This document shows positions 36,384 through 62,276 of a DNA stretch of 64,000 bases, piece after piece. Source of the DNA: a virus (taxonomy: Duplodnaviria; Caudoviricetes); IMG/VR virus record IMGVR_UViG_2895374923_000003, positions 18,026-82,025 of that record. One strand, given 5' to 3'. The translations under genes were made by a program, and so were the position numbers. The notes under the pieces are model-generated. The model was not told where the DNA came from. It saw only the letters and a list, made by a program, of their open reading frames with translations, and ran no database searches. The first letter of the stretch is position 1; each line of letters starts with the position of its first letter.

Positions 36384-36508
36384 GCGAGCTCGACCACTCC
36401 CCGCGGCCCCTGGCCCCGCAGAACAAGGCGGCCGTCACCCCCGAGGACGGTGAGCAGGACGGCGAGATCCTGGACCTGCCCGTCTACGACGGCGGGAGCG
36501 GCTGGTGA
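36380..36508 (+). CDS. Small acidic protein (42 aa)
   Basis: 4-bp overlaps on both sides; directly precedes the endolysin. Confidence 0.5.
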   Translation: MSELDHSPRPLAPQNKAAVTPEDGEQDGEILDLPVYDGGSGW

Positions 36509-37314
36509 GCCTCACCGTCGAGGAGTTCCTCGACACCCTCAAGAGCTTCAAGGGTTACCGCGAGCAGCCCGACAAGGACACCACCTTCGGCCTGTGGTGG
36601 GACTCCCGGCACCGCACGCACGGCTTCCGCGACGCCGCCTGGTGCGACATGTTCCTGGCCTACTGCGCCTTCAAAGCCGGCGGCGAGCAGGGCCTGGACA
36701 TCATCGGCGAATATGCGTACACGCCCTACCATGCAGGCTGGTTCGCCCGCCACGGAGCGTTCGGCAACCGGCCCACCAAGGGCGCCGTGGTGTTCTTCGA
36801 CTGGGCAGGCACCCGCTCGATCAGCGCCATCGACCACGTCGGTGTGGTCCTGGGCACCGACAACCGGGGCCGCGTGGTCACCATCGAGGGCAACACCGAG
36901 GACGCGGTCAAGATCCGCTACCGCGACCGCCGCTACATCGTCGGCTACGGCTATCCCAAGTACGCCAAGGTCAGCGTCAAGCCCCGCCCGGACGAGAAGC
37001 CCGACAAGCCGACCAAGCCGACCCGGCCCACCAAGCCGTCGACTGGCAACCAGGCGCCGCGCTTCCCCCTGAGCGCAGGCCAGGTCTACGGCATCGGCCA
37101 CCGCACCGGCACCGCCAAGGCCGACAGGGACGCCATCCGCCGTGTGCAGGCCAAGCTCGCCGACCGCGGCTGGAACATCACCGCTGACGGCGTCTTCGGC
37201 CCCATCACCCGCCAGGTCGTACGCGCCTTCCAGGACGAGAAGGGCTTGGCCGTCGACGGCCTCGTCGGCCCCCGCACCTGGGCCGCGATCTGGGACGCCC
37301 CCGTCACCGCCTGA
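36505..37314 (+). CDS. Endolysin: CHAP domain plus peptidoglycan-binding domain
   Basis: AWCDMF (Cys), DHVG..TIEGNT (His); C-terminal VQAKL..ADGVFGPIT..FQ..GLAVDGLVGPRTW. Confidence 0.92.
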   Translation: MSLTVEEFLDTLKSFKGYREQPDKDTTFGLWWDSRHRTHGFRDAAWCDMFLAYCAFKAGGEQGLDIIGEYAYTPYHAGWFARHGAFGNRPTKGAVVFFDWAGTRSISAIDHVGVVLGTDNRGRVVTIEGNTEDAVKIRYRDRRYIVGYGYPKYAKVSVKPRPDEKPDKPTKPTRPTKPSTGNQAPRFPLSAGQVYGIGHRTGTAKADRDAIRRVQAKLADRGWNITADGVFGPITRQVVRAFQDEKGLAVDGLVGPRTWAAIWDAPVTA

Positions 37315-37343: not shown

Positions 37344-37850
37344 ATGACCACCGAACCCAAGATCCGGCTTCTGCTCTGCGGCACCTGCACCACCATCGAG
37401 GAACTGCCCGACCACCACGGCCCGGTCGAATCCGACGACCTGCTCGCCTACCTGGCCTCCCGCCACCGCTTCCCCTCCGGCACCCCCCACGCGGGCGGCC
37501 AGCTCTTCGACGTCGAGGAGAAGCACTGGCGCAACACAGAGACCCGCAAGCAGATCGTCGACCAGATCAACGTCCGTAGCGGAGAGGGCCTGGGTCGAAG
37601 CTTCTATGAGCTGAAGGACACCTTCAAAGAGGACGCCTTCACCTGTTGGAAGAAGCACAACCGCACCACCAACTGCGGCGACTTCAAGTCCGAGGCCAAA
37701 CGCCTGACCCCCGACACCGCGGCCGAGCGCAAGGCCGCCGGGCTCGGCAAGGCCCGCTCCAACCGCTTCCTGTGCGAGTTCTGCCCCCACTTCAGCGTCG
37801 TTATGCAGCGCATGCGGGCCGCCCGAGGCGACTACCACTACACCGGCTGA
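37344..37850 (+). CDS. Cys-rich hypothetical protein (probable zinc binding)
   Basis: CGTC, C..H..C, CEFCP motifs. Confidence 0.65.
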   Translation: MTTEPKIRLLLCGTCTTIEELPDHHGPVESDDLLAYLASRHRFPSGTPHAGGQLFDVEEKHWRNTETRKQIVDQINVRSGEGLGRSFYELKDTFKEDAFTCWKKHNRTTNCGDFKSEAKRLTPDTAAERKAAGLGKARSNRFLCEFCPHFSVVMQRMRAARGDYHYTG

Positions 37851-37912
37851 CGCCCGCCCACGCCACCGAACACCACCAGGCCCACCAGCCGACCAACCAC
37901 CCGGAGAACCAC

Positions 37913-38290
37913 ATCAACAGCGCAGGCGCCGCCACCATCATCGGCCACAACCCCGACCCGCAGCCCGCCGCCGGCCCGAGCCCCACCGGCCCGGATGACA
38001 CGCCCGCTCCCGGCCTGCCCGTCCGCACCGCGTTCGTCATCTACCAGGACTACGACGGCGCCTGGGTCGGCACCAACGACCCCGCCCTCATCAGCGACAA
38101 GCTCACCCTCGACAAGACCGCCCACCCCGACGAGATCACCGCCGGATGCTCGGTCGTCGCCGACGAGATCGTCGCCCAGAAGACGGCCATGCAGGTCCAC
38201 AACGTCATGATGGCCGCCGCCCGCCAGGCCGCCGAAGCCCAAGCCAACGCCGCCATCCTCAACCAGGTCCGCAACGCCCCCAGGCCATAG
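37913..38290 (+). CDS. Hypothetical protein, apparent ATC start
   Basis: GGAG RBS 6 nt before in-frame ATC; no in-frame ATG/GTG/TTG until near the C-terminus. Confidence 0.55.
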   Translation: MNSAGAATIIGHNPDPQPAAGPSPTGPDDTPAPGLPVRTAFVIYQDYDGAWVGTNDPALISDKLTLDKTAHPDEITAGCSVVADEIVAQKTAMQVHNVMMAAARQAAEAQANAAILNQVRNAPRP

Positions 38291-38308: not shown

Positions 38309-38342
38309 AAAGGGCCCTCCGCGCGCTTCCGGAGGGCCCTTT
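38309..38342. terminator. 13-bp terminator-like hairpin
   Basis: AAAGGGCCCTCCG / CGGAGGGCCCTTT. Confidence 0.65.
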
Positions 38343-38395
38343 CCGCCTATTCGGCGAATAACTCGAAAAACACCAATCACCCTAAACTGAAATAC

Positions 38396-39388
38396 ATGGG
38401 CTACCAATCGGCGTCACATTATCTCGACAATGCCGCACAATCGTCCGGGCGTATTACCGTCACCTCGGGCCAAAGCGGCTATTTCTCGACGCCCGATCCC
38501 GGCTTCGACCCGGCCCTGTTCGACGGCCAAAAACTCCGGCCGCACGTCCGTGACACGATCACCGGGTCATTCACACATTTCATGCGCTCCCGCTTCCGCG
38601 ACCCGGACTCCTGGACCCGGCTGTGGCTGGCCGGATCCGGCATCTCCCACCAGTGGTCCGGAGACCGAGGCAACGGCGACCTGGACGTCATGATCGGGAT
38701 CAACCCCCTGCGCTTCCGCCAGCTCCAACCCGAGCAAGCAGCACTGTCCGAACCGGAGCTGGCGGATTCCCTCAACTCCCTGCTGCGAGCTGAACTGTGG
38801 CCGCAGACGGCCCGCACCCACTTCGGCGGCAAGCTCTTCGAGCTCACCTACTACTGGAACCCGGCCACCACCAACGCCCCGGGCGGCGTCACCGCGATCC
38901 ACCCCTACGCCGCCTACGACCTGACCGCCGACACCTGGACCGTGCGCCCGCCGCGCCTACCCGCCGACCCGCGCACCCTCTACCCGGCCGACTGGTGGGC
39001 CCAGGTCGACCGCGAAGCGGCCACCGCCCGCGACATCATCGCCCGCTACAACGCCGCCCGCGGCACCGCCCAATCCACGTCCATCGCCAGCCCCGGCCAC
39101 ACCAACGCGATGACCGCCCTGCACCTGGCCGTCGACCAGGCCAGCCACCTGTTCGACGACATCCACACCGGCCGCCACCAAGCCTTCGGGCCCGGCGGCC
39201 ACGGCTACGGCGACTTCGCCAACTTCCGCTGGCAAGCGGCCAAAGCCTCCGGGATCGGACCGGCGCTGGCCGAGATCGCCGCCGTCGGCCGCCAAGCCGC
39301 CCTGGACACCCAGCGCCATCTGTACGGCCAGCCGCTCGCCGAGGCCAGCACCGCCCGCCTCCAAGCCCTGCTGTGGAGCAGCCGATGA
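38396..39388 (+). CDS. Pol-beta superfamily nucleotidyltransferase
   Basis: LWLAGSGISHQW..GDLDV (GS..DxD) and FELTYY third acidic strand; TAAACT 7 nt upstream of ATG. Confidence 0.75.
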   Translation: MGYQSASHYLDNAAQSSGRITVTSGQSGYFSTPDPGFDPALFDGQKLRPHVRDTITGSFTHFMRSRFRDPDSWTRLWLAGSGISHQWSGDRGNGDLDVMIGINPLRFRQLQPEQAALSEPELADSLNSLLRAELWPQTARTHFGGKLFELTYYWNPATTNAPGGVTAIHPYAAYDLTADTWTVRPPRLPADPRTLYPADWWAQVDREAATARDIIARYNAARGTAQSTSIASPGHTNAMTALHLAVDQASHLFDDIHTGRHQAFGPGGHGYGDFANFRWQAAKASGIGPALAEIAAVGRQAALDTQRHLYGQPLAEASTARLQALLWSSR

Positions 39389-39867
39389 CCGGACTCGCCC
39401 TGCTGACCGTGGACGGGCTGCTGCGCGACGAAGCCTCCGGCGCCCCGATCCCCACCGGCCGCGCCCTGTACGCCGCCATCGCCAGCGTCCACCGCCTGGC
39501 CCTCATCAGCGACCAGCCCGCCAGCCCGTGGCTGGAACTCAACGGGTTCACCGACCACCAGTTCGTCCTCGAAGCCCACCCCACCGACCCCGACGACCCA
39601 GCCATTCGCCGGCTACGCCAGGTCGAGCGGCTACGCGGCCAAGGCGCCCACATCGCCCTGCTGGCCGACCCCAACCCAGGCGTCATCGCGATCCTGGCCA
39701 GCAGCGGCATCCCCCTCCTGCACTACATCCACCCTGCCTACGCACGCCCCGAGTACCTGCCGGACCACGAGGCGGCCCTGACCCCCTGGCAGCTCATGGT
39801 CGACGAGGTCGACCGCGTGCGCGGCCTGCGCGCTGCCGACCCCCGACCCGACAAGGACGCCCTGTGA
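39385..39867 (+). CDS. HAD-like protein (degenerate motif I)
   Basis: ALLTVDGLLRD, LALIS, LLADPNP; ATGA overlap with the NTase. Confidence 0.55.
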   Translation: MTGLALLTVDGLLRDEASGAPIPTGRALYAAIASVHRLALISDQPASPWLELNGFTDHQFVLEAHPTDPDDPAIRRLRQVERLRGQGAHIALLADPNPGVIAILASSGIPLLHYIHPAYARPEYLPDHEAALTPWQLMVDEVDRVRGLRAADPRPDKDAL

Positions 39868-40697
39868 TCAACCCCGACGCCGTACCCGAGATCCTCGCCC
39901 AGCGCGCCGCTCGCCTGCACGCCGCGGGCAAGCTGTTCAACGGGTTCGTCAACAACCCCGGCCAGCAGCGCATCCGCGCCCGCGCCGAGCGCGGCAAGAA
40001 GCAGGCCACCGCCCGGGCCCGCGCCGAGTGGGAGCAGGCCGCCCGCAACGCCAGCGTCAAGAACCCCGCGCCCGTACCGGGGCCGACGACCGCACCCGGC
40101 GCGGGAGTGGACCTGTCGCCCTACGACAAGCCGTCCGCCGTCACCTTCGACCCGCTCAACCGCTCCAGCGCGAGCGACAAGCGAAAGGCAGCCCCGGCGC
40201 CGGGCGCCCGCAACCACGTCGGCCAGGTCATCCCGCCCAGCCCGCAGGAGAAGGCCGCGTTCATCCAGCGGCGCGTCGCTCCGTACGTGCGCCAGCTCAA
40301 CCGCGTCACCGACCCGCGGGACCTGCCCGCCGTCCAGGCCCGCGTCGGCGCCCGCCAGGTTCCCACCCCCGGGCCGCTGCCCAAGCCCGGCCCAGCCATC
40401 GCCCAGCCCACCCCCGCCCCGGCCGGCCCGCCCCAGCCGCCCACCTACGGCCAGCGGATGCGCCAGGTGATCCGCGAGGGCATCGAGGACATCCAGGCCA
40501 AGCGCATCGCCCAGTCCACCCTCCTGGCCGCCCAGCGCTCCGGCCGCATCCCCCCGCCGACCGGCGGCCAGCAGACGCTGTTCACCGTCGGCCAGACCAG
40601 CCACACCGCAGGCAAGGCGGCGCCCGCGGGCCGCGCCCCGGTCGACTGGTCAACCGCCCGCAAGCGGGCCCAGCACCACCAGCCCGGCCTGTTTTGA
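39864..40697 (+). CDS. Pro/Ala-rich basic hypothetical protein
   Basis: GTGA and TGATG overlaps place it in the operon; low-complexity sequence. Confidence 0.55.
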   Translation: MINPDAVPEILAQRAARLHAAGKLFNGFVNNPGQQRIRARAERGKKQATARARAEWEQAARNASVKNPAPVPGPTTAPGAGVDLSPYDKPSAVTFDPLNRSSASDKRKAAPAPGARNHVGQVIPPSPQEKAAFIQRRVAPYVRQLNRVTDPRDLPAVQARVGARQVPTPGPLPKPGPAIAQPTPAPAGPPQPPTYGQRMRQVIREGIEDIQAKRIAQSTLLAAQRSGRIPPPTGGQQTLFTVGQTSHTAGKAAPAGRAPVDWSTARKRAQHHQPGLF

Positions 40698-42184
40698 TGT
40701 TGTCGCTGTACTTCGGCGGCTCGGAGGTGCCCGGCTGGCGCACCCTCCTGGCCGCCCAAGGCGTCGAGCACGTCGCCCTGTCCTTTGTCGGGCTGCTGCG
40801 CCGGACCAAACTCACCCGGCCCTGGCTCATCTCCGCCAAGTACCCCGACCACCAGAGCGTCTTCGTCGACTCCGGCGGATACACCCTCAACGCCAAGCCG
40901 CAGGAGTGGCCCGCTGAGCGCGTCGAGGACCTGGTTGGCGCCTACCGGACCTTCATCGAAGCCAACCTCGACCGGATCGCCATGGTGTCCGAACTGGATG
41001 CGACCAGCATGGGGCCGGACTGGCTCGCCCGCCACCGATCGGACTTCTACGACCACCTGGGGGAGAAGTTCCTGCCGATCTGGCACGCCGAGCACGGCGT
41101 TGCCGAACTGGAACGGCTGGCAGACCGCTACGGCCGGGTCGGCGTCCCCCAGATCTCCGTCGCCGGGCGCGACATCGCCGGACTCCTCAACCGGCTCGCC
41201 CGCCGCGGCGTCCGGATCCACGGCGTGGCCATGACCAAGACCGACCTCATGGAGCAGATCGGATTCGACTCCGTCGCCTCCACGAGCTGGCTGTCCCCGG
41301 CCCAGTACGGCGACACCCAGATCTGGACCGGACACGCCCTCAAGCGCTACCCCCGCAAGTACAAGGACCAGGGCCGCAAACGCCACCGGCAGCACCTGGA
41401 GCGCGCCGGCTTCGACATCGAGCTCATCGAATCGGACAACGCGAGCGAGGTCCTCAAGGTCGCGATCTGGAGCTGGCGTCGGTTCGTCGACCACATCAAC
41501 ACGCGCAAACGGAAAGTAGTTGATATGTCCCCCGAAACGCCTTCCGGACCAAACGCGGAAGTCGAGCCGGACCCAGTTGATACCCCCGCCCCGCAAACGC
41601 GGAAGCCGGTACCAACTCCTCGCACCGGAGAACGAGCCCTCCTGCCCGGCCTGACCCTGGCCCAGGTGAGCGAAACCGGCATCGGAGACGACGGCCAGCC
41701 GACCACCACCACCCGCTCCCTCGTCGAGCTCCAGGCCGACAGCCTGCGCCAGTGCGACACCTGCTACCTCGCCTCCCACTGCCCGGCCAACAGCCCCGGC
41801 AGCGCCTGCGCCTACACCATCCCGGTCACCATCAAGACCCGCGACCAGCTCCGCGCCGTCGAGGACGCCGTGGTGTCCATGCAGTTCCAGCGGGTCGCCT
41901 TCCTGCGCCTGGTCGAGGAATCGGAAGGCGGCTACGCCGACCCCAACCTGTCCGCCGAGATCGACCGGCTCCACCGGATGCTCGCCAAGCGCGCCGAGGC
42001 CGACGCCGAGGGCTTCAGCCTGACGGTCAAGGCGTCCGGCCGCGCCATGGCCGAGGGCGGCACCATCGCCCGCCTGTTCGGCTCCGATGCCAGCCACCGC
42101 GCCCGCGAGTTGGAGGCGCCCCGCCGCAGCGATGACGTCCTGGCCAGCCTGGACGTCGTCGAGGCAGAGGTCATCGACAGGTAG
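40697..42184 (+). CDS. TGT/DpdA-fold protein fused to a Cys4 zinc site and helical C-terminal domain
   Basis: VFVDSGGYT, ELD, LPIWH, RIHGVAMT, FDSVASTSW follow the DpdA/TGT barrel motif order; then CDTC..HC..AC. Confidence 0.6.
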   Translation: MLSLYFGGSEVPGWRTLLAAQGVEHVALSFVGLLRRTKLTRPWLISAKYPDHQSVFVDSGGYTLNAKPQEWPAERVEDLVGAYRTFIEANLDRIAMVSELDATSMGPDWLARHRSDFYDHLGEKFLPIWHAEHGVAELERLADRYGRVGVPQISVAGRDIAGLLNRLARRGVRIHGVAMTKTDLMEQIGFDSVASTSWLSPAQYGDTQIWTGHALKRYPRKYKDQGRKRHRQHLERAGFDIELIESDNASEVLKVAIWSWRRFVDHINTRKRKVVDMSPETPSGPNAEVEPDPVDTPAPQTRKPVPTPRTGERALLPGLTLAQVSETGIGDDGQPTTTTRSLVELQADSLRQCDTCYLASHCPANSPGSACAYTIPVTIKTRDQLRAVEDAVVSMQFQRVAFLRLVEESEGGYADPNLSAEIDRLHRMLAKRAEADAEGFSLTVKASGRAMAEGGTIARLFGSDASHRARELEAPRRSDDVLASLDVVEAEVIDR

Positions 42185-42369
42185 TTGATATCCCGGCCCG
42201 CTGAGAGCAGGAAACCCTCTCTTCAGCGAGGCTGAGCGCGAGTGCCCGGCTGCTACCTTGGGCCTCGAGGCCGCCGCTCAGCGGTGGTTCCTTCGGTCGG
42301 CGGGGTGGTGCCCGCCGATTGGTTGGGCACCAGGGCGGATGGTACCCCCTGGTGTTTGGTGGAAATACG

Positions 42370-42402
42370 CGAAGACCCCGCCGGAGCCCGGCGGGGTCTT
42401 CG
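42370..42402. terminator. Bidirectional terminator-like hairpin between convergent operons
   Basis: CGAAGACCCCGCCGG-agc-CCGGCGGGGTCTTCG perfect 15-bp stem. Confidence 0.7.
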
Positions 42403-42415
42403 TGCATTCCGGAGA

Positions 42416-47830: not shown

Positions 47831-50215
47831 ATGGCCCGCAAGATCGCCCCCGCCAAGACCCCCACCATCGCCATCGCCCGCGCCCTCCGCTCTATCGGCC
47901 TGGTCCAGGGCCGGGACTTCAAGGTCGAAGGCGTCTACCGGCGGTGCACCGCATACGGCGAGCGCATCAAGGAGCGCACCGGCACCCAGGTGAGCCTGTT
48001 CGGCACCCACGCCGAGCGCGTGGTCTGGGAGCGGGCCGAGGAGATCGAGCGCTACACCCAGGCCGAGGGATACACCTTCGGCGTGCGCAGCATCGCGGTC
48101 ACCGCCGGGGGGCACCGCATCCTGGCCGTGGGCAACGTGTACGAGTCCAACTGGCGCGAGGTCCGCAAGGCCGAGGCCGAGGCCGCCAAGCTCGCCGAAG
48201 TCCGCGCCCTGGGCCTGCCCGACGAGGCCGCTCACCTCACGCCTGACGCGCTGATCCGCTTCGCCGCCCACGTCTTCCAGACCGAGGGCAATACCGACGC
48301 CTGGCACGCGATCAGCGGCGCAATGGAGAACGCCGACCAGACCATGAGTGATGACGGGCAGCCCTACCCCGGCCACATCCTCTGGAGCGACTTCTACGCC
48401 AAGCGCTGGGCCGAGATCGCCATCGCAGGCTGGGAGACTCATGTCGCCGCTGGCCTCCCTTCTGACGAGCTGCCCACCCTCGCGCACCCCCTCGCCGTCG
48501 ACTACTTCGGCTGGGAGATCGAGGCCCCCGCCTGCCCCGTCAACCCGCCAGTCCCCGGCGACATGGTCAACCTCCGCCCGGTTGGCTTCGACGCCCACCT
48601 GTACGACGTCATTGCAGCCACCCCCGCCGCGTCCGGTGCTGCTGTCCTGGCCGAGCACCGCACACCCACTGGTCGCACCATGTTCGCCGTCTACACCCTC
48701 ACCCCGCAGGGCCCCGCCGACGTGGTCGCCTACTACGGCTGGCACGACCCCGAGACAGCAGCCAAGCGGGCCCGTCTCGCCTTCTACGACCGCGAACACG
48801 AGCTGAGCGCCTCACCCCCCTCCACCGGCTCACCACCGCCGCCTGAGCAACCCCTCAGAGCCCGCCTCACCACCGGGCCGACACCACCACCAACCCGAGG
48901 CCGCCCGCCGTGTACCCACAGATCAGCCGCAGGCCCGCCGCTGAGGCACTTGCCTACCGAGTCGAGCCCATCGGCCACCTCTGCCCCGCTTGCTTCCCGC
49001 CGTACGACAACGACGACGCCGAGATCGGCGAGGTCTACCCCTGGACCCTCGACATGGAGCCCGGCGAGCCCGACTTCACCTGCGCCCTCTGCGCTCGCGT
49101 CATCGCCACCGCGCCGCCCGAGCCCGTCGACGACTAACCCACCAGGCCCGACTCACCACCGGGCCCGCACCGCCACCAACCAACCACCTGAAGGAGCCCC
49201 CACCATGACCGCCTACATCACCCCCGCCATGCTCCGCGCACTGACCTACGCCCACGAGACCCGGCAACAGGGCAAGCCCGGCATCATCTATCGGGGCGGC
49301 CCCCAGCTCGGCGAGCCCGGCCAGCACGCCACCGCCGCCACCCTCTCCGCGCTCGTCCGTCGAGGTCTGGTCACGCCGATCACGGCCGAGACCACTACCC
49401 GCCGAGGCCACCGCGTCCAGACCCTCGACGCCGCCCAGATCACCGACGACGGAAGCGCCTGGATCGAGAAGCTCCAGCAACTGGAGAACGCGGCCAATAG
49501 CGCTGACCCCATGGCCGACTACGTCGCCGACATGGCCGCCATGCACGACGTGTTCACCGAGCAGGCCACCGCCTACGCCGAGGGCTTCGAGCTGGTCGAC
49601 CCGCCTGCCAACTTCGCCCCCGCCACTGACGACGAAGAAGCGCCCAGCGCACCCCGCACCCTGCCGCACGTCACGATCAAGGCCCGCGACCTCAAGCCCG
49701 GCCACCTGATCCACGAGTGCTGCGCTGACTACATCCTGGTGCTCGAGGTCATCGAGAAGTTCGAGGGCTGGTCAAGCGTCGTCCACACCAACGACGAACA
49801 CCCCAGGATCGGCCTCTCTTACCCCTTCGACGCCGACGTGATCGTCTCCATCCTCACCCTGAGCGTCCCGCCCCTCGCCGCTCCGGCCACGCTCACCGAG
49901 CAACTCGCCGCCGAAGAGATCGCCATCGCCCTGCGCGCCCTCGGTGCCTACGTCCACACCTACGGCATCGAGGACGGGCACGACGTCTTCAGCAACCGCC
50001 AGCTCGACGTCGCCCGCAGGGTGGGCCACCTCTGGCACCGGCACCGGCCCGACCTCGCCGCCTTGCTCGGCGACGACGTAGAGACTGCGCTCCGCACGCT
50101 GGGCGAACTCGTCGAGACCTACGGCCTGGAGGACGACGAGAACGCCCTCACCGCCACCCAGCGCGAGATCGCCGAGAAGATCGGCCAGCTCTGGCAAGCC
50201 GACATAGACGCCTAG
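47831..50215 (+). CDS. Open frame joining two hypothetical genes (47831 to about 48850, and 49205-50215)
   Basis: No stop in frame; the 48850-49204 part translates as low-complexity sequence across two repeat leaders; 49205 has its own GAAGGAG RBS and a duplicated 55-aa module. Confidence 0.6.
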   Translation: MARKIAPAKTPTIAIARALRSIGLVQGRDFKVEGVYRRCTAYGERIKERTGTQVSLFGTHAERVVWERAEEIERYTQAEGYTFGVRSIAVTAGGHRILAVGNVYESNWREVRKAEAEAAKLAEVRALGLPDEAAHLTPDALIRFAAHVFQTEGNTDAWHAISGAMENADQTMSDDGQPYPGHILWSDFYAKRWAEIAIAGWETHVAAGLPSDELPTLAHPLAVDYFGWEIEAPACPVNPPVPGDMVNLRPVGFDAHLYDVIAATPAASGAAVLAEHRTPTGRTMFAVYTLTPQGPADVVAYYGWHDPETAAKRARLAFYDREHELSASPPSTGSPPPPEQPLRARLTTGPTPPPTRGRPPCTHRSAAGPPLRHLPTESSPSATSAPLASRRTTTTTPRSARSTPGPSTWSPASPTSPAPSALASSPPRRPSPSTTNPPGPTHHRARTATNQPPEGAPTMTAYITPAMLRALTYAHETRQQGKPGIIYRGGPQLGEPGQHATAATLSALVRRGLVTPITAETTTRRGHRVQTLDAAQITDDGSAWIEKLQQLENAANSADPMADYVADMAAMHDVFTEQATAYAEGFELVDPPANFAPATDDEEAPSAPRTLPHVTIKARDLKPGHLIHECCADYILVLEVIEKFEGWSSVVHTNDEHPRIGLSYPFDADVIVSILTLSVPPLAAPATLTEQLAAEEIAIALRALGAYVHTYGIEDGHDVFSNRQLDVARRVGHLWHRHRPDLAALLGDDVETALRTLGELVETYGLEDDENALTATQREIAEKIGQLWQADIDA
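48910..49137 (+). CDS. Small zinc-ribbon protein nested out of frame in the 47831-50215 ORF
   Basis: CPAC..CALC; flanked by repeat leaders; GAGG RBS. Confidence 0.6.
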   Translation: MYPQISRRPAAEALAYRVEPIGHLCPACFPPYDNDDAEIGEVYPWTLDMEPGEPDFTCALCARVIATAPPEPVDD

Positions 50216-50244: not shown

Positions 50245-50502
50245 ATGAGCTACCTCCCCGACGCCCTGGCCTGGAAGCCCGACATCCCCAAAGACCGCAA
50301 GGGCGCAAGGGTCCGCCACTACGACCAGGGAGACCGCGACATCCAAGGGGCCGGAACGGTGACCTTCACCCTCGCCGGGGGAGCGGGCCGCTGGTTCGTC
50401 CAGCGCTCCCACTTCGGCGCAAGCCCTGAACCCCACAGGACGCGCTACTTCCCCAACCGCCGCACGGCCCGCGAGTGCTTCGAGCACCTGGCCTACGAGT
50501 AA
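50245..50502 (+). CDS. Hypothetical protein
   Basis: Phage codon usage; continues the small-gene array. Confidence 0.6.
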   Translation: MSYLPDALAWKPDIPKDRKGARVRHYDQGDRDIQGAGTVTFTLAGGAGRWFVQRSHFGASPEPHRTRYFPNRRTARECFEHLAYE

Positions 50503-50526
50503 CCACCAACAACCGAAGGACCACCC

Positions 50527-50818
50527 ATGTACGACTTCACCATGCAGGACGCCGAACTGACCGCCGCCACCGAGAGCCGCGAGGTCTGGCGACTCCACCC
50601 CAACCACGGCCTCGCCTTCCTGGTCGCCTACTACGCCCCCCGACGACGGCTACATCTGGGGCGAGGTCTTCCCCGACAAGGACGGCGACGGCTGGGTCTG
50701 GTCCGTCTGGAACGGCTCCAACTGCGTGCGCGGGATGCGCGGGAAAAGGCCCGAGGGGTCCGCCGAGATCGCGGTCAAGCGCGCCGAGGACCTCGTGAAC
50801 AAGACCCTCAGCGCCTAG
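50527..50818 (+). pseudogene. Small gene with a +1 frameshift in a C6 run
   Basis: Removing one C at 50636-50641 gives ..YAPDDGYIWGEVFPDKDGDGWVWSVW..LVNKTLSA* ending just before the terminator. Confidence 0.6.
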
Positions 50819-50830
50819 CACCCAACCCCA

Positions 50831-50856
50831 GGCCCCCGGCATCGCCGGGGGCTTCC
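50831..50856 (+). terminator. Terminator hairpin ending the small-gene array
   Basis: GCCCCCGGC-atc-GCCGGGGGC then TT. Confidence 0.6.
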
Positions 50857-51819
50857 GCATGTCCGGGCCCTGCTGACGGCCCGAAATCGCGCCAGGCTCA
50901 GCGCACTCCGTTGCCGACACGATGCCCCACAGCATGCCCACGGACTCGACCGGCCCGCCCACGTCGCCGGTACGGCGCAGCTCACGATTATTCAGCGCGA
51001 TTATCTGGCCCATTCTTCCGAGCCATTTTTGAATATGTGTAGCTATCGGTAAATGGTGCTCACTGATAATTGATGTGTCCGTGCGTAGCAAGTCCACCAC
51101 ATGGCGGCACCTCAGTTTGTCAGGACATACCGCCACGGGCCTTGAAAATGGCGGGACGCAGTGGCCTAAAGTCAAGCTCTGAACCCTACAAATCGTGGAA
51201 AAGCGCCAACTTGGCCACCTCGGCGACCTCCGAAAGAGGCTCGCGATGTCATTCCTTCGCGCCTTGCGTTCGTGCAGGTCAGCGCCTCGGCCTGAAAGGC
51301 TAGGAGATGTAACCATCTCCACGCGTCCACGTCTATGCAGGTCAAAGCAGCAATTCTGTCAGCGGTCAGCATTAAGCCAGCAAGTGCGCACAGGTACGCC
51401 GAACCCTTTGGTGCATCGTGGCGGCATGTGTACGCGCATGGATTTTGTAGGAAACCATGAACTTCTCAGCCCTCTTGACAAATGCGACCCCCGCCCACCG
51501 TTAAACACGTCTTATGCAACGTATCCAGCCCGGTTTTCTGGGCGTCTCGCGCCAGAGGCTATAAGACAGTGGCCAATGTGAAGTGGAATGGCTCGCAGTT
51601 GCCGAGAAGTGACTGGCGAGTGCTTGTAGTACATCTCAGGAAAGGTGTGACTCAAAGGCGAGAGGAAAAATCCGCTCGAAAACGCATGCGTTTGTCTGGG
51701 TGAAAGAGGGTCTATCTTGAAAATGAAACCTCCCCAGAAAGTGGCGAGGTGGCGGCCATGCTGGCAGCGGCGGCCCGCCGATACGCTAGCGGGCACAGAT
51801 CCGATAAGGGAGGGGCGAA

Positions 51820-52272
51820 GTGGCGAACTACAAGGCACACCCAGAAGAGATCCGACTCGACTTCAACGCGGGCCTGCCGTACGCGGTGATCGCGAAGAAG
51901 TACGGCATGACGGTCGGCGGTGTACAACAAGCGGCCGAGCGCGAGGGGTTCCAGGGCGGGAATGTGAGTCACAAATCCTTCCTCCCGTGGATCATCGCAA
52001 CGGAGCACCAACACAGTCGGGAGGCGACGAACCTACGTAATCTGTCCCGTTATGTACAGTTCGCTGATGTACCCGAGGTGAAGCTGAACACCGCCTTGCG
52101 CTGGTTGCTCAGTCAGGTCGAGCGGGGCCTAGACATCGACTACGACCGGGACTGCGGATTTACGACGAAGCCGCTGGCCCCAGGAGGTCACCTGAGCGCC
52201 GTCCACGAGAATGTCAGGGTTCGCAGGGAGTCGGAAACTACGGAGAACGCCGCCGACTCTGCATCGACTTGA
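51820..52272 (+). CDS. Actinophage immunity repressor-like HTH protein
   Basis: GLPYAVIAKKYGMTVGGVQ HTH, then LPW..EHQ..NLR..W..DYD..GF pattern as in L5 gp71-type repressors; GGAGG RBS. Confidence 0.65.
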   Translation: MANYKAHPEEIRLDFNAGLPYAVIAKKYGMTVGGVQQAAEREGFQGGNVSHKSFLPWIIATEHQHSREATNLRNLSRYVQFADVPEVKLNTALRWLLSQVERGLDIDYDRDCGFTTKPLAPGGHLSAVHENVRVRRESETTENAADSAST

Positions 52273-52495
52273 GGAGGGTTTGGTTGGCTAGGATCGCTCG
52301 CCATTAAACATCTTACGGAGAACCACGCCCCCCAAGCACATGCTCGACGCATTCGGCGACAACCCTCCCGTCGACCTCAACCTGCTCGACATGCATGAGT
52401 GGACGGTGCTTCCAGCCCGTCCCCGCCCAGACTGGCTGCGGCCTAACAACTTTGAGCCCGCTCTGGCCATGCCGGGGGTGTCCCTATGGAGTTTG

Positions 52496-52806
52496 TCAAG
52501 CAGCGGGGCGCTGGTTGAGCAGGCTGGTGAGGTCGTCGAGGCACGTAGCGAGGTCCTCTTGCGTGGCGAGGTTGTAGCGGGTGCTCGTGGTGGCGCCGCC
52601 GGTGGGGTGGCCGAGATCGAGTTCGGCTTCTCCGCTGGTCCAGATGGTGAGCTGGGCGAGGTTGTGGGTGTTCTCGCAGGTGGCCCAGACTGCGGGCTTG
52701 TCGGTCGTGGCCCGGTGGTGAGTAGCCAGTGGATGCCTGCTGCTTCCCAGATTGGTCCGCGGTCCTGGATGGCGGCGGCGATCAGGTCTGGGGTGAACTC
52801 GTTCAT
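52496..52806 (-). pseudogene. Frameshifted polymorphic-toxin immunity gene (TriTu-like)
   Basis: 1-bp deletion near 52708; repaired frame reads TDKPAVWATCEN..AQLTIWTSGEAELDL..LATCLDDLTSLL. Confidence 0.5.
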
Positions 52807-52829
52807 GTGGGTGATCGTCTCACGGGGGT

Positions 52830-53400
52830 CCATCCGGCCGCCTGAGCGGCGGGCGAGGCAGATGAGGGCGGCGTTGTGCCTTTGGCCTCGGCTCTCTTCT
52901 GGTCGTAGTAGGCCCTGCTCAGCGGGTCGGCGAGGGAGGCAAACGTGGCCAGGAAGATGGCGCGGTTCAAGGCTTTGTTGCCGCCTTTGGTTGGGTGTTC
53001 ACCTCGGATGGCGGAGCCGGAGCGGCGTGTGACGGGGGCGAGGCCGGCATAGGCGGCCAGATGTCCGCGGGTGGGGAAGGCAGTGATGTCGCCGATCTTC
53101 AGAAGGACACGGGAGGCGGTTCTGATCTCGAAGCCGAGCATCGAGATCAGAACCTCGGTGAGAAGGCGCGGATCGAGCATCCCCTCGACCTATGCCGCGA
53201 TCTGTTTGCGCTGGTTGTGGACTGATAGCAGGAGCGGGCCAGGTGCGGCAGGACGGTCACGTCTGCGGTGGTCCCGGGAACGGTGACGGTCTAGGCGTCC
53301 AGTGCGGTCTTGATCGCCTCGACCATTCGCAGGAGCGGATGTTCGAGCTGGGAAGGGGATTCGTCATCACAGCCGAGGAGCTCACGGACGTCGACCCAGG
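52830..53400 (-). pseudogene. IS110-family transposase remnant
   Basis: EVLISMLGFEIRTA..FPTRGHLAAYAGLAPVTRRSGSAIRGE..GGNKAL..SRAYYDQKRAE; several stops and frameshifts. Confidence 0.85.
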
Positions 53401-54028
53401 TACGTTCATCGAGGTGCGCTGATATCGCTCGTGACCTACAAGGCGCGCTGAGCAACGACCTGTACGAGCCAGCGAGCCGAGCCCGAGCCTGGCGCTACTT
53501 CGGGGATGCTCAGTTTGTTGGGCATGAGATCGGTAAGTGTGAATCCCCTGCTGGAACGCAAGGGGCCGCCCCGCCCTTGATGAGGTCGGGCGGCCTGTTT
53601 GGCTCGTGCCGAGCCCTGTATCAGTACCACCATCACCACGCGGTAACCATGGTTCACTCGCGGGTGGGTACATCTCGACTTCGCCTGACGGGCGCGATTT
53701 TGGGAGTACTTCCTGCTGGTCCTATGCCGAGGGAGCGAGTGGACCGACAAGCGCCGATACAACGGATGCGGTCTTGCTCGACTTATTGGTGCGTGTCCTG
53801 CTGGACCTGGCGTATGTATCAGTTCACTGAACCGAAAATATCACGCTATGTACCTGGATGATGTCAGGGGCGATCTTGCAGAGTGGTCGTTCGAAAGTTA
53901 CGCTTTGCCCGTTTGGTTGTGTGTTCTGAGCCTCCGGGCCGATGGATCTGCTGCGTGCCGGATGGAGCGGAGAACGTCTGACGTCCTGTGCGGGGACGTC
54001 CCTCGTCGGTTCGGAGTGTGAATAGCAC

Positions 54029-57000
54029 GTGCGTCCATTTTCGCGTGTCTTCTTTCGGCATACACGCAAGTCGCTGGCCGCGAGCTTAATACTTGCGGTG
54101 ACGCCAGGGCTGCTGGGAATGACTGTGATGCCGGCCGTGGCCACCGCAGGCCAGACGTCCACGGTAGCGGCAAATTCGGTTGACACGCCTCGGCAGCAAA
54201 TGGGTTCTGCAAAGTCGCTGCCGTCACTGGTGGAGACCACTGTCACGCAGCGGGTGGCTGCAGAGGTCGACCCCGAGATGGGGCGGCCGAAGAAGGCGCT
54301 GCGGTCTGAGGAACGTTCCAGCACAACGACTGCGATGTCCGGGGTGGCGAGCGAACCCTGTACCGGCTATCCGATTTGGGAACCGCGGAACTATCCAGGC
54401 GGTGCTCAGGTCACTTATCAGAACCGGGTCCGTGAATGGCGGATCTGGACGGCAAGGAGCGACGGCGCATCGTCCTTGGTCGCCCCGGGAAGTGATAATG
54501 ACTGGGGCACGTGGTACGACTCCGGGTCGTGCCCACCGGATCCGCAGCCGGAGCCGCCGGCGCCGACGCTGCACGCAGTGTCCCCGCCGGGTGGGATGTT
54601 GGTGGGCACACGAACACCGACACTGCGGGCGCTCGCGCGCAGCAATGCTGGCTTCTACGCACTCAGTTACGCCTTCACCGTCTGTGAGGACGAGGCACTG
54701 AGCAAGGGGTGCGCGTCCGCACCCACGCTGGGCAATGATGTGAACACCTGGCAGGTGCCGGCTGGCAAGCTGGTCTGGAGTAAGCAGTACTGGTGGCGGG
54801 TCATCGTCACCGACACCAGCAACTCCAAGACCGCAGGCTGGACCGGAACGTTCACCACCGGCGTGCGCCAGCCCGTGATTACCTCACAACTGTCCACATC
54901 CTCGACAGGAGCGGCGTTCGAGACCGCGACGGGCAACTACACGACGAGCGTGACCGACGCATTGGTGGCGAATGCTGGGCTCCCGCTGGGAGTGGTGCGC
55001 TCCTACAACAGCATGGATCCGCATCGCGGCGGCATGTTCGGTGCTGGCTGGTCGACGGCCTGGGACATGCGGATCGTGACGGAAAATCATCCTGACGGTG
55101 TGACACTGCTGGTGACCTTGGCCAACGGTAAGCAGGTGCGGTTCGCGGCCAGCGGGGACGGCACCTTCCAGCCACCTCCGGGGATGCACGCGACGCTGGC
55201 CAATGTCTCCGATGGCGGCTGGCGGCTTATGGACAAGGCGTCCACCTCCTATCACTTCGACGGCCAGGGCCGCCTGACCAAGATCACCGACCTGCGTGGC
55301 CGTGCCCTAACGCTCACCTACAGCGCTGCCGGGACTCTGGAGAAGGTGACCGGTCTTGGCGACCGGAGGCTGACGTTCACTTGGACCGGCAAGCATGTCA
55401 CCGAGGTGATGACTGCCCCGGTGAATGGGACGCCGCTGAAGTGGACCTATATCTACGACGGTGACAAGCTCACGCAGGTCTGTTCTCCTCAGAAGGCGCC
55501 TAACTGCACTGCGTATGACTACACCACTGGGTCGCAGTATGCGAGCACGGTCTTGAACTCTGACCCGCTGAGCTACTGGCGTCTGGGTGAGACGAGCAAG
55601 GAGGAGGCTAAAGACGCAGGCTGGGCGGGGTCCTCAGGCCGCTACAACGACGTGACCCTCGGCCAGCCGGGAGCGATTGAAGGCAGCACAGATACTGCAA
55701 TTCAACTGAGCCGCGGGGTCACTGGCCCTCAGCCGTCAGTCACGCTGCCTGAACATGTGATCGCCCGAATCGGCACTGGCGCTTCCTTCGAGACGTGGTT
55801 TAAGACCAGCCAACAGGGCGCGATCTTCTCCACGAGCGGAACTGACGAGTACTTCTACTCGCGGTCGGCGATTTATGTCGGCTCAGACGGCAAGCTGCGC
55901 GGGCAGTTCCGTCCAACCGATGGTTCCCCGATCACTCCGATTACCAGCGCTTCTGCTGTCAACGACGGACAGTGGCATCACGTGGTTCTGACCATGGCTG
56001 GTGATAAGCAGACCATGTACGTGGACGGCACGGTGGCAGGGACAGTGACAGCTACCCCCGGATGGGGCGGCTGGCCAGTGACCGCACAGCTCGGCGCTGG
56101 CGTTCTCAATGACGGTAATCCGCTGACCACGCCAGCCGGTGCTCAGAGCAACATCTGGCCTGCGATCCCGGCCACAAACTACAGCGGCTACTTGGACGAG
56201 GTGGCCATCTTTGACAAACCACTGTCGGCACAAGAGGTCGCCCTCCATTACGCCGCTCGCACCGCCGCGCCGCACCTGCTCACGAAGATTGCCCGTCCTT
56301 CGGGCAGAGTGGAGATGCGGGCTGTCTATGACACGGGCAATGACCGCATCAAGACCTATACTGACGCTAACGGCGGCACCTGGCAGATCAGTGCGCCCGT
56401 CCCCGGGCCTGTTGACCTCATTGACCTGTCCGTCGTGGAGAAGATCACGGTCACCGATCCCGCCAGCAACACACTCGTATACGAGCACGACAGCTGGCGT
56501 GGCAACCGTCTGATCTCGATAACAGACCAGCTCGGCAAGAAAACTAGCTACGGCTACGACACGGGCGGCTTCCTGGAGAAGGCCACGGACCCGAACGGCA
56601 ACGCCGTCACGCGCGCCAACGACAAACGCGGCAACGCACTAGCCGTCTCAACATGTCGTTCGGCGGGCAACTGCCAAACACAGCGCGTCGAGTACAGCCT
56701 CAACACCAACGACGAGTTCGACCCCCGCAATGACCGCCCTATCAAGATCCGCGACGCTCGCTCGGCAACGGCGACTGACAACACCTACGCCACCTCGATC
56801 GAATACAACAGCTTCGGCGAGCAGATAAAGCAGACCACTCCAGCCACCCCTGATTTCCCCAACGGCCGCTCCACCACGGTCGCCTACACCGACGGCACGG
56901 AGACAGCCGTCGGCGGTGGAACTACCCCGGCCGGACTGCCGAAGATCATGACTGATCTGCGGGGCCACTCCTGGACCTACCGTTACACAGCCGCCGGTGA

Positions 57001-60000
57001 TCTGGTTGAGCAGACCGACCCCGGAGGGCTGATCACCAAGCTGGACTACGACGCGATCGGACGACCGACCAGTTCCACCCAGGTATCGTCAGCTTTTCCA
57101 GATGGTGTGAAGACCGTCTTTACTTATGATGCTGCTGGCCGGCCCGAGACGCTGACCGAGCCTGGGGTGAAGAACGAGGTTTCCGGTGTTACTCACACCA
57201 AGAAGACCACGCGGACCTATGACGCGGACGGCAACACGCTAAGCGAGATCGTCACCGACCTGACCGGCGGCGACGTCGCACGCTCCATCGTCAATACCTA
57301 CGATGCCCAGGGCAGAGTGGAGACGATCACCGGCGCTGAGGGGGGTGTGGTCCGCCAGACGTGGAACACCCTAGGCCAGCTTGTACGCATAACTGATGCT
57401 CGTGGCACGGTAGTCGAGAACGCTTACACGAAGCGCGGCGAGCTTCACGCCCGGACGCTGAAGGGATGGACAGGCAGCCCAGTCAACCCGCAACCTGCTC
57501 AGGACGTGGTGCTGGAGTCTCTCGCGTACGACCCCGCAGGCCGCCTAGCCACCCGGACCGACGCCATGGGTCGCAAGACGTCCTACACCTACTTCACTGA
57601 TAACCTGCTGTGGCAGAAGATCGCCGACGACGTGAAACTAAACGGCTCGGCCACGGCTCGCGATGTCACTCTGGAAGCGCACACATACGATGCGGCGGGC
57701 CAGCGCACCAAGCTGGTGACCGGTGGCGGCGTCGCTACCACCGAGACCGTTTACGATGCGGCCGGCCGTATCACGTCGCAGACCTTCGACCCGGCCCAGC
57801 TCGTGCGCAAGACCGCCTTCACCTACGACGCCAACGGCAACATTCTGAAGACCACCCACACTGGTGGCGGCAGCACACGGGCAGAGAGCACCGAGTACGC
57901 CTACAACAAGGCCAACCTGCCAACCCGGGAGACGGTAGAGAACGGCGAGCAGGACCTCATCTCCACGCTCGCCTACGATGAGCGCGGCCTGGTCACCGCG
58001 ATCACCGACCCACGAGGCAACGTCGCTGGTGTGACCGCTGCCGATTTCACCACCAGGATGCGCTACGACGCGATGGGCCGCCTGGCCGAAGCCGTTGGAC
58101 CGCAGGTGGCGGTCGACAAAGCGGGATCCAGTACCTCGGCTAAACCGACTGTCAAGATCGGCTACGACACCTTCGGCGCCGAGACTCACAAGACCGACGC
58201 AGAAGGCCGGACGCTCACCTCGGTCTTCGATAAAGCAGGCCGTCTGATGAGCCAGGTCGCACCATCGTACACACCGCCCGGTGGGCTGGCGATGACGCCC
58301 ACCACCACGTACGCATACGACGCGGCCGGACAGCTGATCAAAACCACGAACCCGCAGGGTTTCTCCACCACCTTCGATTATGACCAGCTCGGGCACCAGG
58401 TCCGTATCAACAACTTGGCGCCGGAAGGTAAGCAGTCCGCCCATACAGTGGTCGATTACGATCTCGTCGGAGAGAAGCTCGCCGTCATCGACCCGACGGG
58501 CGCCCGCAGTGAGCAGACCTACGATGATCTGGGCCGAGTCATTACCAGCACTCAGGTGGAGCGCAGCCCTGCGCCTGCAGCCTTCACCACGCGGTTGGAG
58601 TACAACGACGGTGGCCGGCTCATCAGACAGGTCGCGCCGGGCGACCGGATTACCAGCTTCGCCGTGAACGCCGCCGGTGAGGTCATCACACAGACTGACC
58701 CGGCCACGAACAAGACGTTGATGGCCTACGACCTGGCTGGGCGCCTGATCAGGACGACCGACCCGGAGGGCAACGCCACCACGGCCGAATACGATCTGGC
58801 TGGCCGCCAGATCGGCGTCCAGGATCTGAACGCCAGCGGCGCGATGGTGCGCTCGGCCAGTACCGCCTACGATGCGGCGGGCAACCCGATCAGCGCCACC
58901 TCCCCCGAGGGACACGTCACCAAGCAGACCTACGATGCCCTCAACCGGGTCACCTCGCTGATCGAGCCGATTTCTGCGAGCGAGTCGACTACCACCCGCT
59001 TCGGTTACGACGCCACCGGTGCTCGTACCCGGCTGACCGACGGACGCGGCAACGCCACCTGGACCAGCTACAACAGCCTTGGCCTGGCCGAAACCGTAAC
59101 CGAGCCGGCCACCACGGCACACCCGAACCCTGCCGACCGCACCTGGACTAGCATCTACGACCAGGCAGGCAACCCCGTCACCTCGCTGCTGCCGGGTGGG
59201 GTGCGCATCGACCGGCACTTCGACTATCTCGGATTCTTAACCCAAGAGAGCGGTTCAGGCGGGGGCGCGGCCAGTGCTCATCGCTACTTCCGGTACGACC
59301 TGGCTGGCCGCACCACACGTATCAACAACACGGATCTCTCCTACAACGACCGCGGTCTGCTGACGTTCGTCGGTGTGGAACAACCCCCTACGGGTTTCAC
59401 TACATACACCGCCTATACCTACGACGAGGCTGGCAACCCCATTCAGCGTGTTGACGACGCGGGCACAGCGAACTTCACGTGGGACAAGGCCAACAGGCTC
59501 GCCACCGCCACCGATCCCCTTACCGGGCGGACGCTGACCTATGGATACGACAAGGCTAGCCGCCTGACCTCCATGACCGGCAAAACCAACACCGGAGCGG
59601 CTTCGGATTCCCAGACCTTCACTTACGACGCTGTTGACCGCCTCGAATCCCAGACGCTGAAGAACGGCACGGGCGCCCAGCTGGCGAAGATCACCTATGG
59701 GTGGGACAAAGATGACAACCTCACAACCAAGACCACTGCAGGTACGGCTGGCGCAGGTATCAACACCTACACCTACGACCACGCCGGCCGCCTGACCTCC
59801 TGGACCGCCCCCGGCGGCGCCAAAACCGACTACGCCTGGGACGCCTCCGGCAACCGCACCAAAGCGGGCGACAAGACCTATACCTACGACGAACGCAACC
59901 GCCTCACCAGCGGCAACGGCACCACCTACGCCTACACCCCCCGTGGCACCCTGGCCACCGAAACCAAGAACGGCCAGACCACGAACCTGACCTTCGACGC

Positions 60001-61774: not shown

Positions 61775-61865
61775 GTGCTCCGCTGCCTCGGGCAAGGATT
61801 CTCTTGCTTGAGGCAGCACCGAGAGTGGGGATGGAGAGGGCTTAACCTCCACCCAACTTGCTCGC

Positions 61866-62276
61866 GTGGACATTAGGGAGTACTATCCCGACATGGCTAC
61901 GAGGTGGACCGTCCGGCATGTGTTCGCTCAGAAGGTTCCTTTTGAGGGGACTTTCGTTGTCACTTTCATAGAGGGCGAAAAGGGGACGGGTCGCAGGCTG
62001 TACTTCGACGGAAAGGTTGGGGCAGAAGCTGAGGATGCTCAGTCGTATCTTATTGCGACTGAGGCGGGGCAAGCGGTGGCTAGGCCCATAAAGTCTATTA
62101 GCTTCGACGGTTCTATTCTCAGCATTACGCTCGACGATGCTAGCGCTTGGCAGCTTGGTATAGACGCTAAAGTATCGTTGGATTTTGAACCGACCTCCCT
62201 TGCCGCTGAAGCACGGCATGGCCTGGAAGAGTTCTTTTCTTATATCTCCGTTCCGGAAGTGATTGTGAACCTATAG
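61866..62276 (+). CDS. Putative cognate immunity protein (Imm10-like)
   Basis: Directly downstream of the toxin; lower GC; beta-rich pattern similar to the next gene. Confidence 0.6.
   Translation: MDIREYYPDMATRWTVRHVFAQKVPFEGTFVVTFIEGEKGTGRRLYFDGKVGAEAEDAQSYLIATEAGQAVARPIKSISFDGSILSITLDDASAWQLGIDAKVSLDFEPTSLAAEARHGLEEFFSYISVPEVIVNL

Follow-up and report, generated by a model that had tools for sequence, protein, structure and literature searches.

The four-gene cassette

We analysed a 64,000-nt stretch of DNA from a tailed phage (Caudoviricetes; positions 18,026 to 82,025 of IMG/VR record IMGVR_UViG_2895374923_000003), hereafter the window, in which four genes, P0001 to P0004, encode a predicted Pol-beta-type nucleotidyltransferase (NTase), a protein of HAD-like fold, a disordered Pro-rich protein and a relative of the phage DNA-modification enzyme DpdA (Table 1). 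The original prediction, made from the nucleotide sequence, had read these genes as a candidate nucleotide or nucleic-acid modification operon. We find no standard modification pathway here; the cassette is a conserved side branch, still uncharacterised, of a known DNA-modification enzyme.

The cassette occupies 38396–42184, and GC3 (third-codon-position G+C) frame analysis and the translations both place its four genes on the + strand. They are coupled as first described, through overlaps at CGATGACC (ATGA), CTGTGATC (GTGA) and TTTGATGTTG (TGATG). The hairpins proposed on both flanks are also real features, far stronger than shuffled sequence: none of 200 shuffles of the left hairpin folded equally well, and the right one has a free energy (dG) of −41 on the + strand and −43 on the − strand (z −5.3 and −5.8). 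No Shine–Dalgarno sequence precedes the ATG at 38396; a −10-like hexamer close to it may represent a leaderless promoter, and a scan with the sigma-70 consensus found no promoter for the cassette. None of the four proteins had a credible match in Pfam, NCBIfam or PADLOC; sequence and profile searches of the PDB gave no match, and neither did megablast of the cassette region against the phage collection. Searches of the literature on the DpdA-like family in Streptomyces phages turned up genome announcements only.

Table 1 Cassette genes, domains of P0004 and flanking features, in window coordinates
Feature	Coordinates	Strand	Basis or remarks
P0001, 330 aa, predicted Pol-beta-type nucleotidyltransferase	38396–39388	+
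P0002, 160 aa, predicted HAD-fold protein without catalytic motif	39385–39867	+
P0003, 277 aa, Pro/Ala/Gln-rich disordered protein	39864–40697	+
P0004, 495 aa, predicted TGT/DpdA-fold barrel plus Cys4 domain	40697–42184	+
P0004 residues 1–278, predicted TGT/DpdA-fold barrel	40697–41530	+	PHROG 887, VIA, hhalign
P0004 disordered Pro-rich linker	41531–41623	+	pLDDT <50 over residues 275–304
P0004 C-terminal Cys4 domain	41624–42184	+	C353-x2-C356-x5-C362-x8-C371; motif E-G-G-Y-A-D-P-N
TAAACT, −10-like hexamer, candidate leaderless promoter	38383–38388	+	7 nt 5′ of ATG
Terminator-like hairpin, left edge of cassette, after c3	38309–38342	+	Perfect 13-bp stem; dG −26 kcal/mol; z −3.9
Long hairpin, bidirectional terminator-like, right edge	42364–42408		17-bp stem, between convergent genes
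c2, 168-aa Cys-rich protein, upstream neighbour	37344–37850	+	Clustering across loci
c3, ~110–170 aa, start codon uncertain	37772–38290	+	GC3 frame open to 38290

The window belongs to a BRock/GiJojo-like myovirus genome that resides as a prophage in a 735-kb chromosomal contig (C34) of an actinomycete. It corresponds to C34:105332–169331 of an 11.4-Mb genome in 55 contigs, has ~68% G+C and carries nearly all of its genes on the + strand. Translated, these genes are colinear with those of GiJojo, a BRock-like Streptomyces myovirus with a 115-kb genome; the shared order begins at the baseplate genes and extends as far as a gene labelled "dpdA-like tRNA-guanine transglycosylase". Homologs of the GiJojo genes from terminase to DpdA-like gene lie at C34:87.7–147.5 kb, whereas those of its left-arm genes lie at ~182–184 kb; the element is therefore embedded in the contig in a form circularly permuted with respect to GiJojo. 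The cassette follows the lysis genes. A packaging or structural role for it was rejected because the colinear GiJojo genome has its terminase, portal, capsid and tail genes elsewhere. A further 19 DpdA-like loci were found in actinomycete genomes (Streptomyces, Nonomuraea, Kitasatospora, Actinomadura, Saccharothrix and Terracoccus), some of them lying midway along contigs of 7 Mb. Temperate phages related to the 'lytic' BRock/GiJojo group therefore seem to be common.

A DpdA-like protein without the nucleophile

Gene 4 had been called a fusion of a barrel of the tRNA-guanine transglycosylase (TGT) type with a zinc finger, and the call stands in that a TGT-type barrel is joined to a Cys4 domain. 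P0004 matched PHROG 887, "queuine tRNA-ribosyltransferase", over its full length (E 8.5e-70). An AlphaFold2 (AF2) model built from 70 homologs had a predicted local distance difference test (pLDDT) score above 90 for residues 1–270, a disordered linker at residues 275–304 and a moderately confident C-terminal domain. The modelled barrel aligned with archaeosine TGT (ArcTGT), bacterial TGT and Cap10 in VIA with Z scores of 16.8–17.9 (root-mean-square deviation 3.2–3.7 Å over 241–270 residues), and Foldseek returned a TGT-type barrel at E 2.5e-5, with the DpdA structure 7UI4 also among the matches. In hhalign, the P0004 family aligned with the DpdAs of phages CAjan, Iggy and phiFN37 over 212 columns (probability 97.8%, E 7.5e-13). 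P0004, with its two domains, belongs to the DpdA branch of the TGT superfamily.

The four cysteines of the C-terminal domain, 353, 356, 362 and 371, are invariant in the homologs. Residues 1–300 contain no cysteine at all, and the structural Zn site that follows the barrel in TGTs (CxCxxC...H) is absent. The domain forms 540 clusters at 50% identity, almost always at the C terminus of proteins of ~440–520 aa with the architecture of P0004; among 1.84 billion representatives, essentially no other architecture was found for it.

Three known or annotated proteins help to place P0004. The first, gp21 of Bacillus phage BCD7, is also a member of PHROG 887 and has the same layout of barrel, long linker and C-x2-C-x5-C-x8-C domain with GG-x-ADP; the barrels are 27% identical and the C-terminal domains 30%. 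Unlike P0004, it keeps the catalytic Asp (F-T-G-D-S-T-T-W), adjoins FolE, QueC, QueE and QueD, and has neither a HAD-like nor a P0001-type NTase neighbour; gp21 is itself known from sequence alone. In tblastn its barrel leads to the DpdAs of CAjan, the 9g group and Iggy, which sit in preQ0 clusters. The second, DpdA1 of Escherichia phages CAjan and 9g and Pseudomonas phage Iggy, is a DNA guanine transglycosylase for which DNA modification has been demonstrated (PMC6884629), the inserted base being preQ0 or G+. It has in common with P0004 the barrel, the Asp of DSG, the Asp of L-D, the His of P-x-[FW]-H and the S-x-[ST]-W motif, but it is only ~300 aa long, lacks the Cys4 domain, carries the nucleophilic Asp and lies beside preQ0 synthesis genes. 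The third, DpdA of Salmonella Montevideo (7UI4), is a DNA enzyme of TGT fold that needs a partner, the ATPase DpdB, where P0004 is accompanied by a HAD-like protein; its barrel domain has a structural Zn site and that of P0004 has none. In CAjan (L084) and Iggy (L085), dpdA lies two genes 5′ of the genes for the beta-clamp (processivity factor) and DNA polymerase.

In the Salmonella enzyme, Asp256 provides the nucleophile, Asp95 acts as general acid/base, and the base is recognised by Asp130 and His181; the three active-site Asp residues are invariant across TGT and DpdA, and the D95A and D256A substitutions abolish exchange (PMC10164549). We assigned the corresponding positions of P0004 from MAFFT and hhalign alignments of its family with DpdA1, in which FVD58SGGY pairs with FLDSGAF of CAjan, SELD101 with SVLD, PIWH130 with PCFH and FDSVA194STSW with YSCDSSSW. 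Accordingly, Asp58, in DSGG, is equivalent to TGT D102 and DpdA D95 and is Asp in 64 of 70 homologs and Glu in the other 6; Asp101, equivalent to TGT D156 and DpdA D130, is invariant (70/70) and matches an invariant Asp of DpdA1; and His130, the counterpart of His181, is kept. Asp256 has no counterpart. At this position (TGT D280), which lies where the last barrel strand ends and at which DpdA1 has the invariant Asp of C-D-S-S-S-W, P0004 has Ala194 (41276–41278), and the 70 homologs have Ala (54), Ser (13), Gly (2) or Leu (1). Residue 194 is never Asp in 75 viral loci, and among 172 further members with a recognisable motif it is Ala, Ser or Gly in 159 and Asp in one; about 93% of relatives have one of these three small residues. 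The nearby Asp191 was considered as a nucleophile and rejected, being Asp in only 45 of 70 homologs and at the wrong end of the strand.

The substrate of the textbook reaction is missing as well. As originally stated, the window has no queC, queD, queE or folE. Domain searches for TGT (PF01702), QueC (PF06508) and PTPS/QueD (PF01242) found none in the whole 11.4-Mb host genome, which is scored 100% complete by markers, and matched in control genomes; the only host FolE is on another contig (C3). The GiJojo annotation lists no Que genes. A standard modification pathway would therefore have no 7-deazaguanine source in this host. Together, the missing nucleophile Asp and the missing 7-deazaguanine source exclude the canonical preQ0-type insertion through a covalent Asp intermediate; with the guanine-pocket residues Asp58, Asp101 and His130 retained, the findings favour a derived function in which that pocket is still used.

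A comparable situation has been met in Mycobacterium phage Orion, whose singleton DpdA is not accompanied by 7-deazaguanine in the DNA, and for which the authors raised functional divergence (PMC6884629). Like P0004, the Orion protein comes from a DpdA-family gene of an actinophage with no deazaguanine pathway in phage or host, but it belongs to a different sequence family: tblastn with P0004 found no mycobacteriophage match, and the DpdA1 profile found no match in the Orion record.

P0004 might still be a DNA transglycosylase if another residue, such as Asp206, had taken over as nucleophile or if the mechanism were dissociative. It would then insert a scavenged or novel base, and the NTase and the HAD-like protein would contribute to making or delivering that base. 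The strict retention of the base-binding and acid/base residues fits such an activity, as does Asp206 itself, invariant in the 70-member alignment and absent from canonical DpdAs; moreover, Salmonella phage 7-11 encodes DpdA as its only such gene, yet its DNA contains a little 2′-deoxy-7-amido-7-deazaguanosine (dADG) (PMC6884629). However, Asp206 is replaced by Ser or Ala in 8 viral loci and by Glu in others, host and prophage have no QueC, QueD or TGT, the HAD-like partner lacks catalytic residues and no base-synthesis gene is conserved nearby. We consider continued transglycosylation improbable.

Partner proteins

The Pol-beta-type NTase call for gene 1 stands on its signature residues. P0001 consists of a predicted NTase core (residues ~37–185) followed by a C-terminal helical bundle, and its AF2 model has a pLDDT of 94. 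In an alignment of 69 homologs, the signature G80-S81-x13-D95-L-D97 and E149 are invariant, among 39 invariant columns in total. The structural matches of the core are weak and all to NTases: Foldseek against the PDB gave E values of 0.03–0.3 (probability up to 0.63), and VIA comparison with minimal NTases, Tailor and MntA gave Z scores of 5.0–5.5 over 89–101 residues. The core matches take in TUT7, CD-NTases and CCA enzymes. A wide VIA search was dominated by the helical bundle, matching generic bundles with Z up to 8.7, and is uninformative on the NTase core. In BFVD, P0001 matched phage proteins at E 1e-8 to 1e-6, including one named NTase domain (E 7.8e-7); its nearest homolog, at 96% identity, is from a Nonomuraea. 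Judged by its conserved residues, P0001 appears to be the only cassette protein with an intact canonical active site.

The pairing of a TGT-like barrel with an NTase recalls Cap10–CdnD of the type IV cyclic-oligonucleotide-based antiphage signalling system (CBASS; 9NTN), and raises the possibility that the target is a protein or small-molecule signal. The P0004 pocket would then hold a nucleobase ligand or the NTase, and the cassette would regulate a signal or sequester a host immune signal as an anti-defence measure. Cap10 (9ntn_B) matches the P0004 barrel as well as TGT does (Z 16.8), likewise lacks the TGT zinc site and is partnered and encoded with an NTase (bioRxiv 10.1101/2025.04.06.647259); the weak Foldseek matches of P0001 include CD-NTases, and the cassette is a hairpin-bounded unit of its own, like a moron. 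Cap10, however, keeps its catalytic Asp248 and depends both on Cap9, a QueC-like protein, and on deazaguanine modification of Gly2 in the NTase (bioRxiv 10.1101/2025.04.06.647259). The cassette and genome contain no QueC-like Cap9, PADLOC found no match, and the NTase is missing from 15 of 72 loci while the HAD-like partner is nearly constant. The N terminus of P0001 is not conserved, with Gly2 in only 11 of 69 homologs, and Cap10-like conjugation on Gly2 was rejected for this reason. A signal target has, in our estimate, a low probability.

The HAD-like call for gene 2 held at the level of the fold. The ESM Atlas model of P0002 matched clusters of PF25109 (HAD_PNKP) with template modelling (TM) scores of 0.63–0.69 over residues 1–125, the fold being that of the HAD phosphatase domain of PNKP. 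Its homologs were recovered from related loci by tblastn, a word-indexed search having returned P0002 alone. Motif I of P0002 reads L-T-V-D-G-L in place of DxDx[TV]. In all 61 homologs the DxDGT and the other HAD motifs are absent: motif I takes the form h-h-h-x-[D/E/W]-G, the nucleophile Asp never occurs, only G11 is invariant and no motif II–IV residues are conserved. P0002 is therefore best described as a putative pseudo-HAD protein.

A PNKP-type partner next to a TGT-like barrel could also indicate RNA as the target, with the dead barrel binding G34 tRNAs at the anticodon loop, either to mark them or to protect them against anticodon nucleases, and the NTase and the PNKP-like fold forming a set for handling tRNA ends. 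The barrel is equally like tRNA TGTs and DpdA (Z 17–18 for both), and lytic relatives of the prophage carry tRNA-related genes: BRock, reported as virulent, has 29 tRNAs, and the group has 29–35 tRNAs, RNA ligases, a polynucleotide kinase and a Ro-like protein (PMC7453282). GiJojo has ~35 tRNAs. The prophage, however, keeps the cassette with no tRNA gene in 130 kb, the PNKP-like protein lacks the phosphatase residues, and the nearest sequence relatives of P0004 are DNA DpdAs beside deazaguanine genes. We regard an RNA target as quite unlikely.

P0003 is a fast-evolving disordered protein, a replaceable spacer that is missing from many relatives. P, A, G, Q, S and T make up 56% of its residues, and BLAST found no homolog in 76 loci. 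In these relatives the slot between the HAD-like and DpdA-like genes is either empty, the two genes abutting, or filled by a small membrane protein plus a low-complexity protein, or by an unrelated low-complexity protein of 60–640 aa. The sole recurring feature of the slot proteins is the motif Q-x-[GST]-[LM]-F, often at the C terminus. P0003 contains QQTLF (40569–40583) and a C-terminal QPGLF (40680–40694), proteins of the c16 group have two copies of Q[PRAK]GLF, and two other groups end in QGSMF or QGSLF. Slot proteins contain the motif at ~14 times the density seen in the remaining 1,446 predicted proteins, a significant enrichment although the related c16 copies inflate the count, and at least two copies arose in 16 of 100,000 shuffles of P0003. 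The motif fits the consensus for binding to the bacterial sliding clamp, Qxx[LM]F or QL[SD]LF and often C-terminal, that Dalrymple et al. reportedly described in 2001. We treat this fit as a lead and not a result. Of the two host DinB proteins compared for the clamp motif, one has QLSLG and the other none.

Conservation among relatives

The original prediction had proposed synteny in relatives as its test, and synteny is kept. We sampled 72 IMG/VR loci with at least 6 kb 5′ of the DpdA-like gene and 33–62% identity to P0004; many of these loci are closely related, and the counts overstate their independence. The HAD-like gene accompanies the DpdA-like gene in 67 of the 72 loci by tblastn, and in 71 when clustering is included. 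The NTase is present in 57, and the order NTase, HAD-like, DpdA-like is found in all 55 loci that have the three genes. In actinophages of the BRock/GiJojo type, and in their prophages, the cassette is a conserved accessory unit. Around the DpdAs that do carry the nucleophile (BCD7, BS162P1, phiFN37, CAjan and Iggy), searches with NTase-family and HAD-like-family profiles gave no match; across the DpdA-like loci compared, loss of the nucleophile goes with presence of the HAD-like partner.

In a large subgroup of the loci, a protein of 282–325 aa with the ParB/sulfiredoxin-like motif V-A-D-[GA]-H-H-R is encoded between the NTase and the HAD-like gene (L016:5608–6456), and a membrane protein of 96–99 aa follows the HAD-like gene (L016:6955–7245). 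In Fusobacterium phage phiFN37 (L086), too, the DpdA-like gene has ParB-like genes on its flanks.

With two of its four proteins lacking canonical catalytic residues, the cassette might be taken for the decaying remnant of a former deazaguanine system that has no present function. The conservation speaks against this. Gene order and open frames are kept in relatives down to 33% identity, the DpdA-like family, like that of the NTase, has 39 invariant columns, the C-terminal domain persists in its 540 clusters, and residue 194 is restricted to small side chains. Signs of decay, such as a family-wide dN/dS close to 1 or many frameshifted relatives, were not seen. Decay is a very remote prospect on this evidence.

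A possible role in DNA

The modification-operon reading survives in part. Its folds and its synteny stand; three working enzymes are not supported, as gene 4 appears to lack the nucleophile and gene 2 the DxD motif. The roles suggested along with it, namely DNA tagging, tRNA repair and anti-defence signalling, are conjectural. The reading that we prefer, to which we give about an even chance, is that a nucleophile-less DpdA-like protein and a pseudo-HAD partner form a cassette with a derived role that is directed at guanine in DNA but is not transglycosylation. We favour DNA because every characterised relative works on DNA, because the Cys4 domain is common to P0004 and the DpdA of BCD7 in its deazaguanine cluster, because a prophage without tRNA genes keeps the cassette and because the slot motif points to the replisome.

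Under this proposal, the DpdA-like protein would no longer exchange guanine for 7-deazaguanine. Together with its pseudo-HAD partner it would dock on DNA and take a guanine into its pocket, and would then either read the sequence or the base, or act hydrolytically as an N-glycosidase. In the glycosidase version, the small residue at position 194 would leave room for a water molecule, with Asp58 or Glu99 acting as the base. The NTase would provide the only canonical catalytic centre of the cassette, and the slot protein might use its Q-x-G-L-F motifs to hold the set on the host sliding clamp where DNA is being replicated. Such a cassette could mark or protect phage DNA, or interfere with host DNA. 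Taken as a whole, this scheme (a guanine-flipping reader or N-glycosidase derived from DpdA, with a pseudo-HAD adaptor and an NTase, tethered to the clamp by a disordered protein and serving deazaguanine-independent marking, protection or attack of DNA during actinophage replication) is possible but unlikely to be right in every part.

Several points weigh against the proposed DNA-directed role. The loss of the nucleophile at position 194 is mapped by sequence and profile alignment, and in most members Asp206 could have taken over as nucleophile. If the phage's own DNA were the target of a glycosidase, some logic of protection would be required, and we identified none. The clamp-binding reading, which may hold, rests on a five-residue pattern; in BRock and GiJojo the slot proteins terminate in QPL[RK]NFAP, and several others lack a clamp-like motif. 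As to the chemistry, P0004 may do no more than bind, or it may hydrolyse the glycosidic bond.

DpdA has been treated as a signature of 7-deazaguanine DNA modification in phages (PMC10516641). The family described here is a large branch of DpdA, with hundreds of sequence clusters in phages and prophages of Streptomyces, Nonomuraea and other actinomycetes, which cannot carry out the textbook reaction and lacks a substrate, and which is nonetheless strongly conserved with two fixed partners. Annotating such genes as "queuine tRNA-ribosyltransferase" or "dpdA-like" would wrongly predict modified DNA. The family also offers a concrete case for the question posed by Hutinet et al. 2019, that of the role of a singleton DpdA in hosts without preQ0. 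If P0004 is indeed a reader or glycosidase, it would represent a new activity on the TGT scaffold.

Neighbouring genes and sequence features

Upstream of the left hairpin, an endolysin gene (36505–37314) precedes two small genes, c2 and c3, for which Pfam and PHROG gave no match. The c2 gene is found in 55 of 77 loci, always two genes 5′ of the NTase or HAD-like gene; c3, whose conserved part reads DYDGxW...AQKTA, immediately precedes the NTase or HAD-like gene in 55 loci. Both could belong to the functional unit of the cassette.

Downstream, the right arm (42.4–50.5 kb) consists of orphan genes without relatives in the 76 loci. It includes the gene for a 794-aa protein of PHROG 15616, of unknown function, at 47831–50215, which also contains a Q..[LM]F motif. 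From 50500 to 64000 the G+C content falls from ~0.68 to 0.58–0.63 and GC3-based gene calls drop to almost nil; the composition of this part is unlike that of the prophage core and unlike that of the host (0.71).

Last, two sites 28 kb apart, at 13473–13509 and 41573–41618, share an 11-mer, CCAGTTGATAC, and a 15-mer, AGCCGGTACCAACTC, as exact repeats in the same order, with CCTTCCGG and CCGGA flanking both sites; the second copy lies within the linker-coding part of the DpdA-like gene. In shuffled sequence the count of the 11-mer was never reached and that of the 15-mer was reached in 1 of 100 shuffles. The repeat could be a candidate protein-binding site that is kept at the DNA level.

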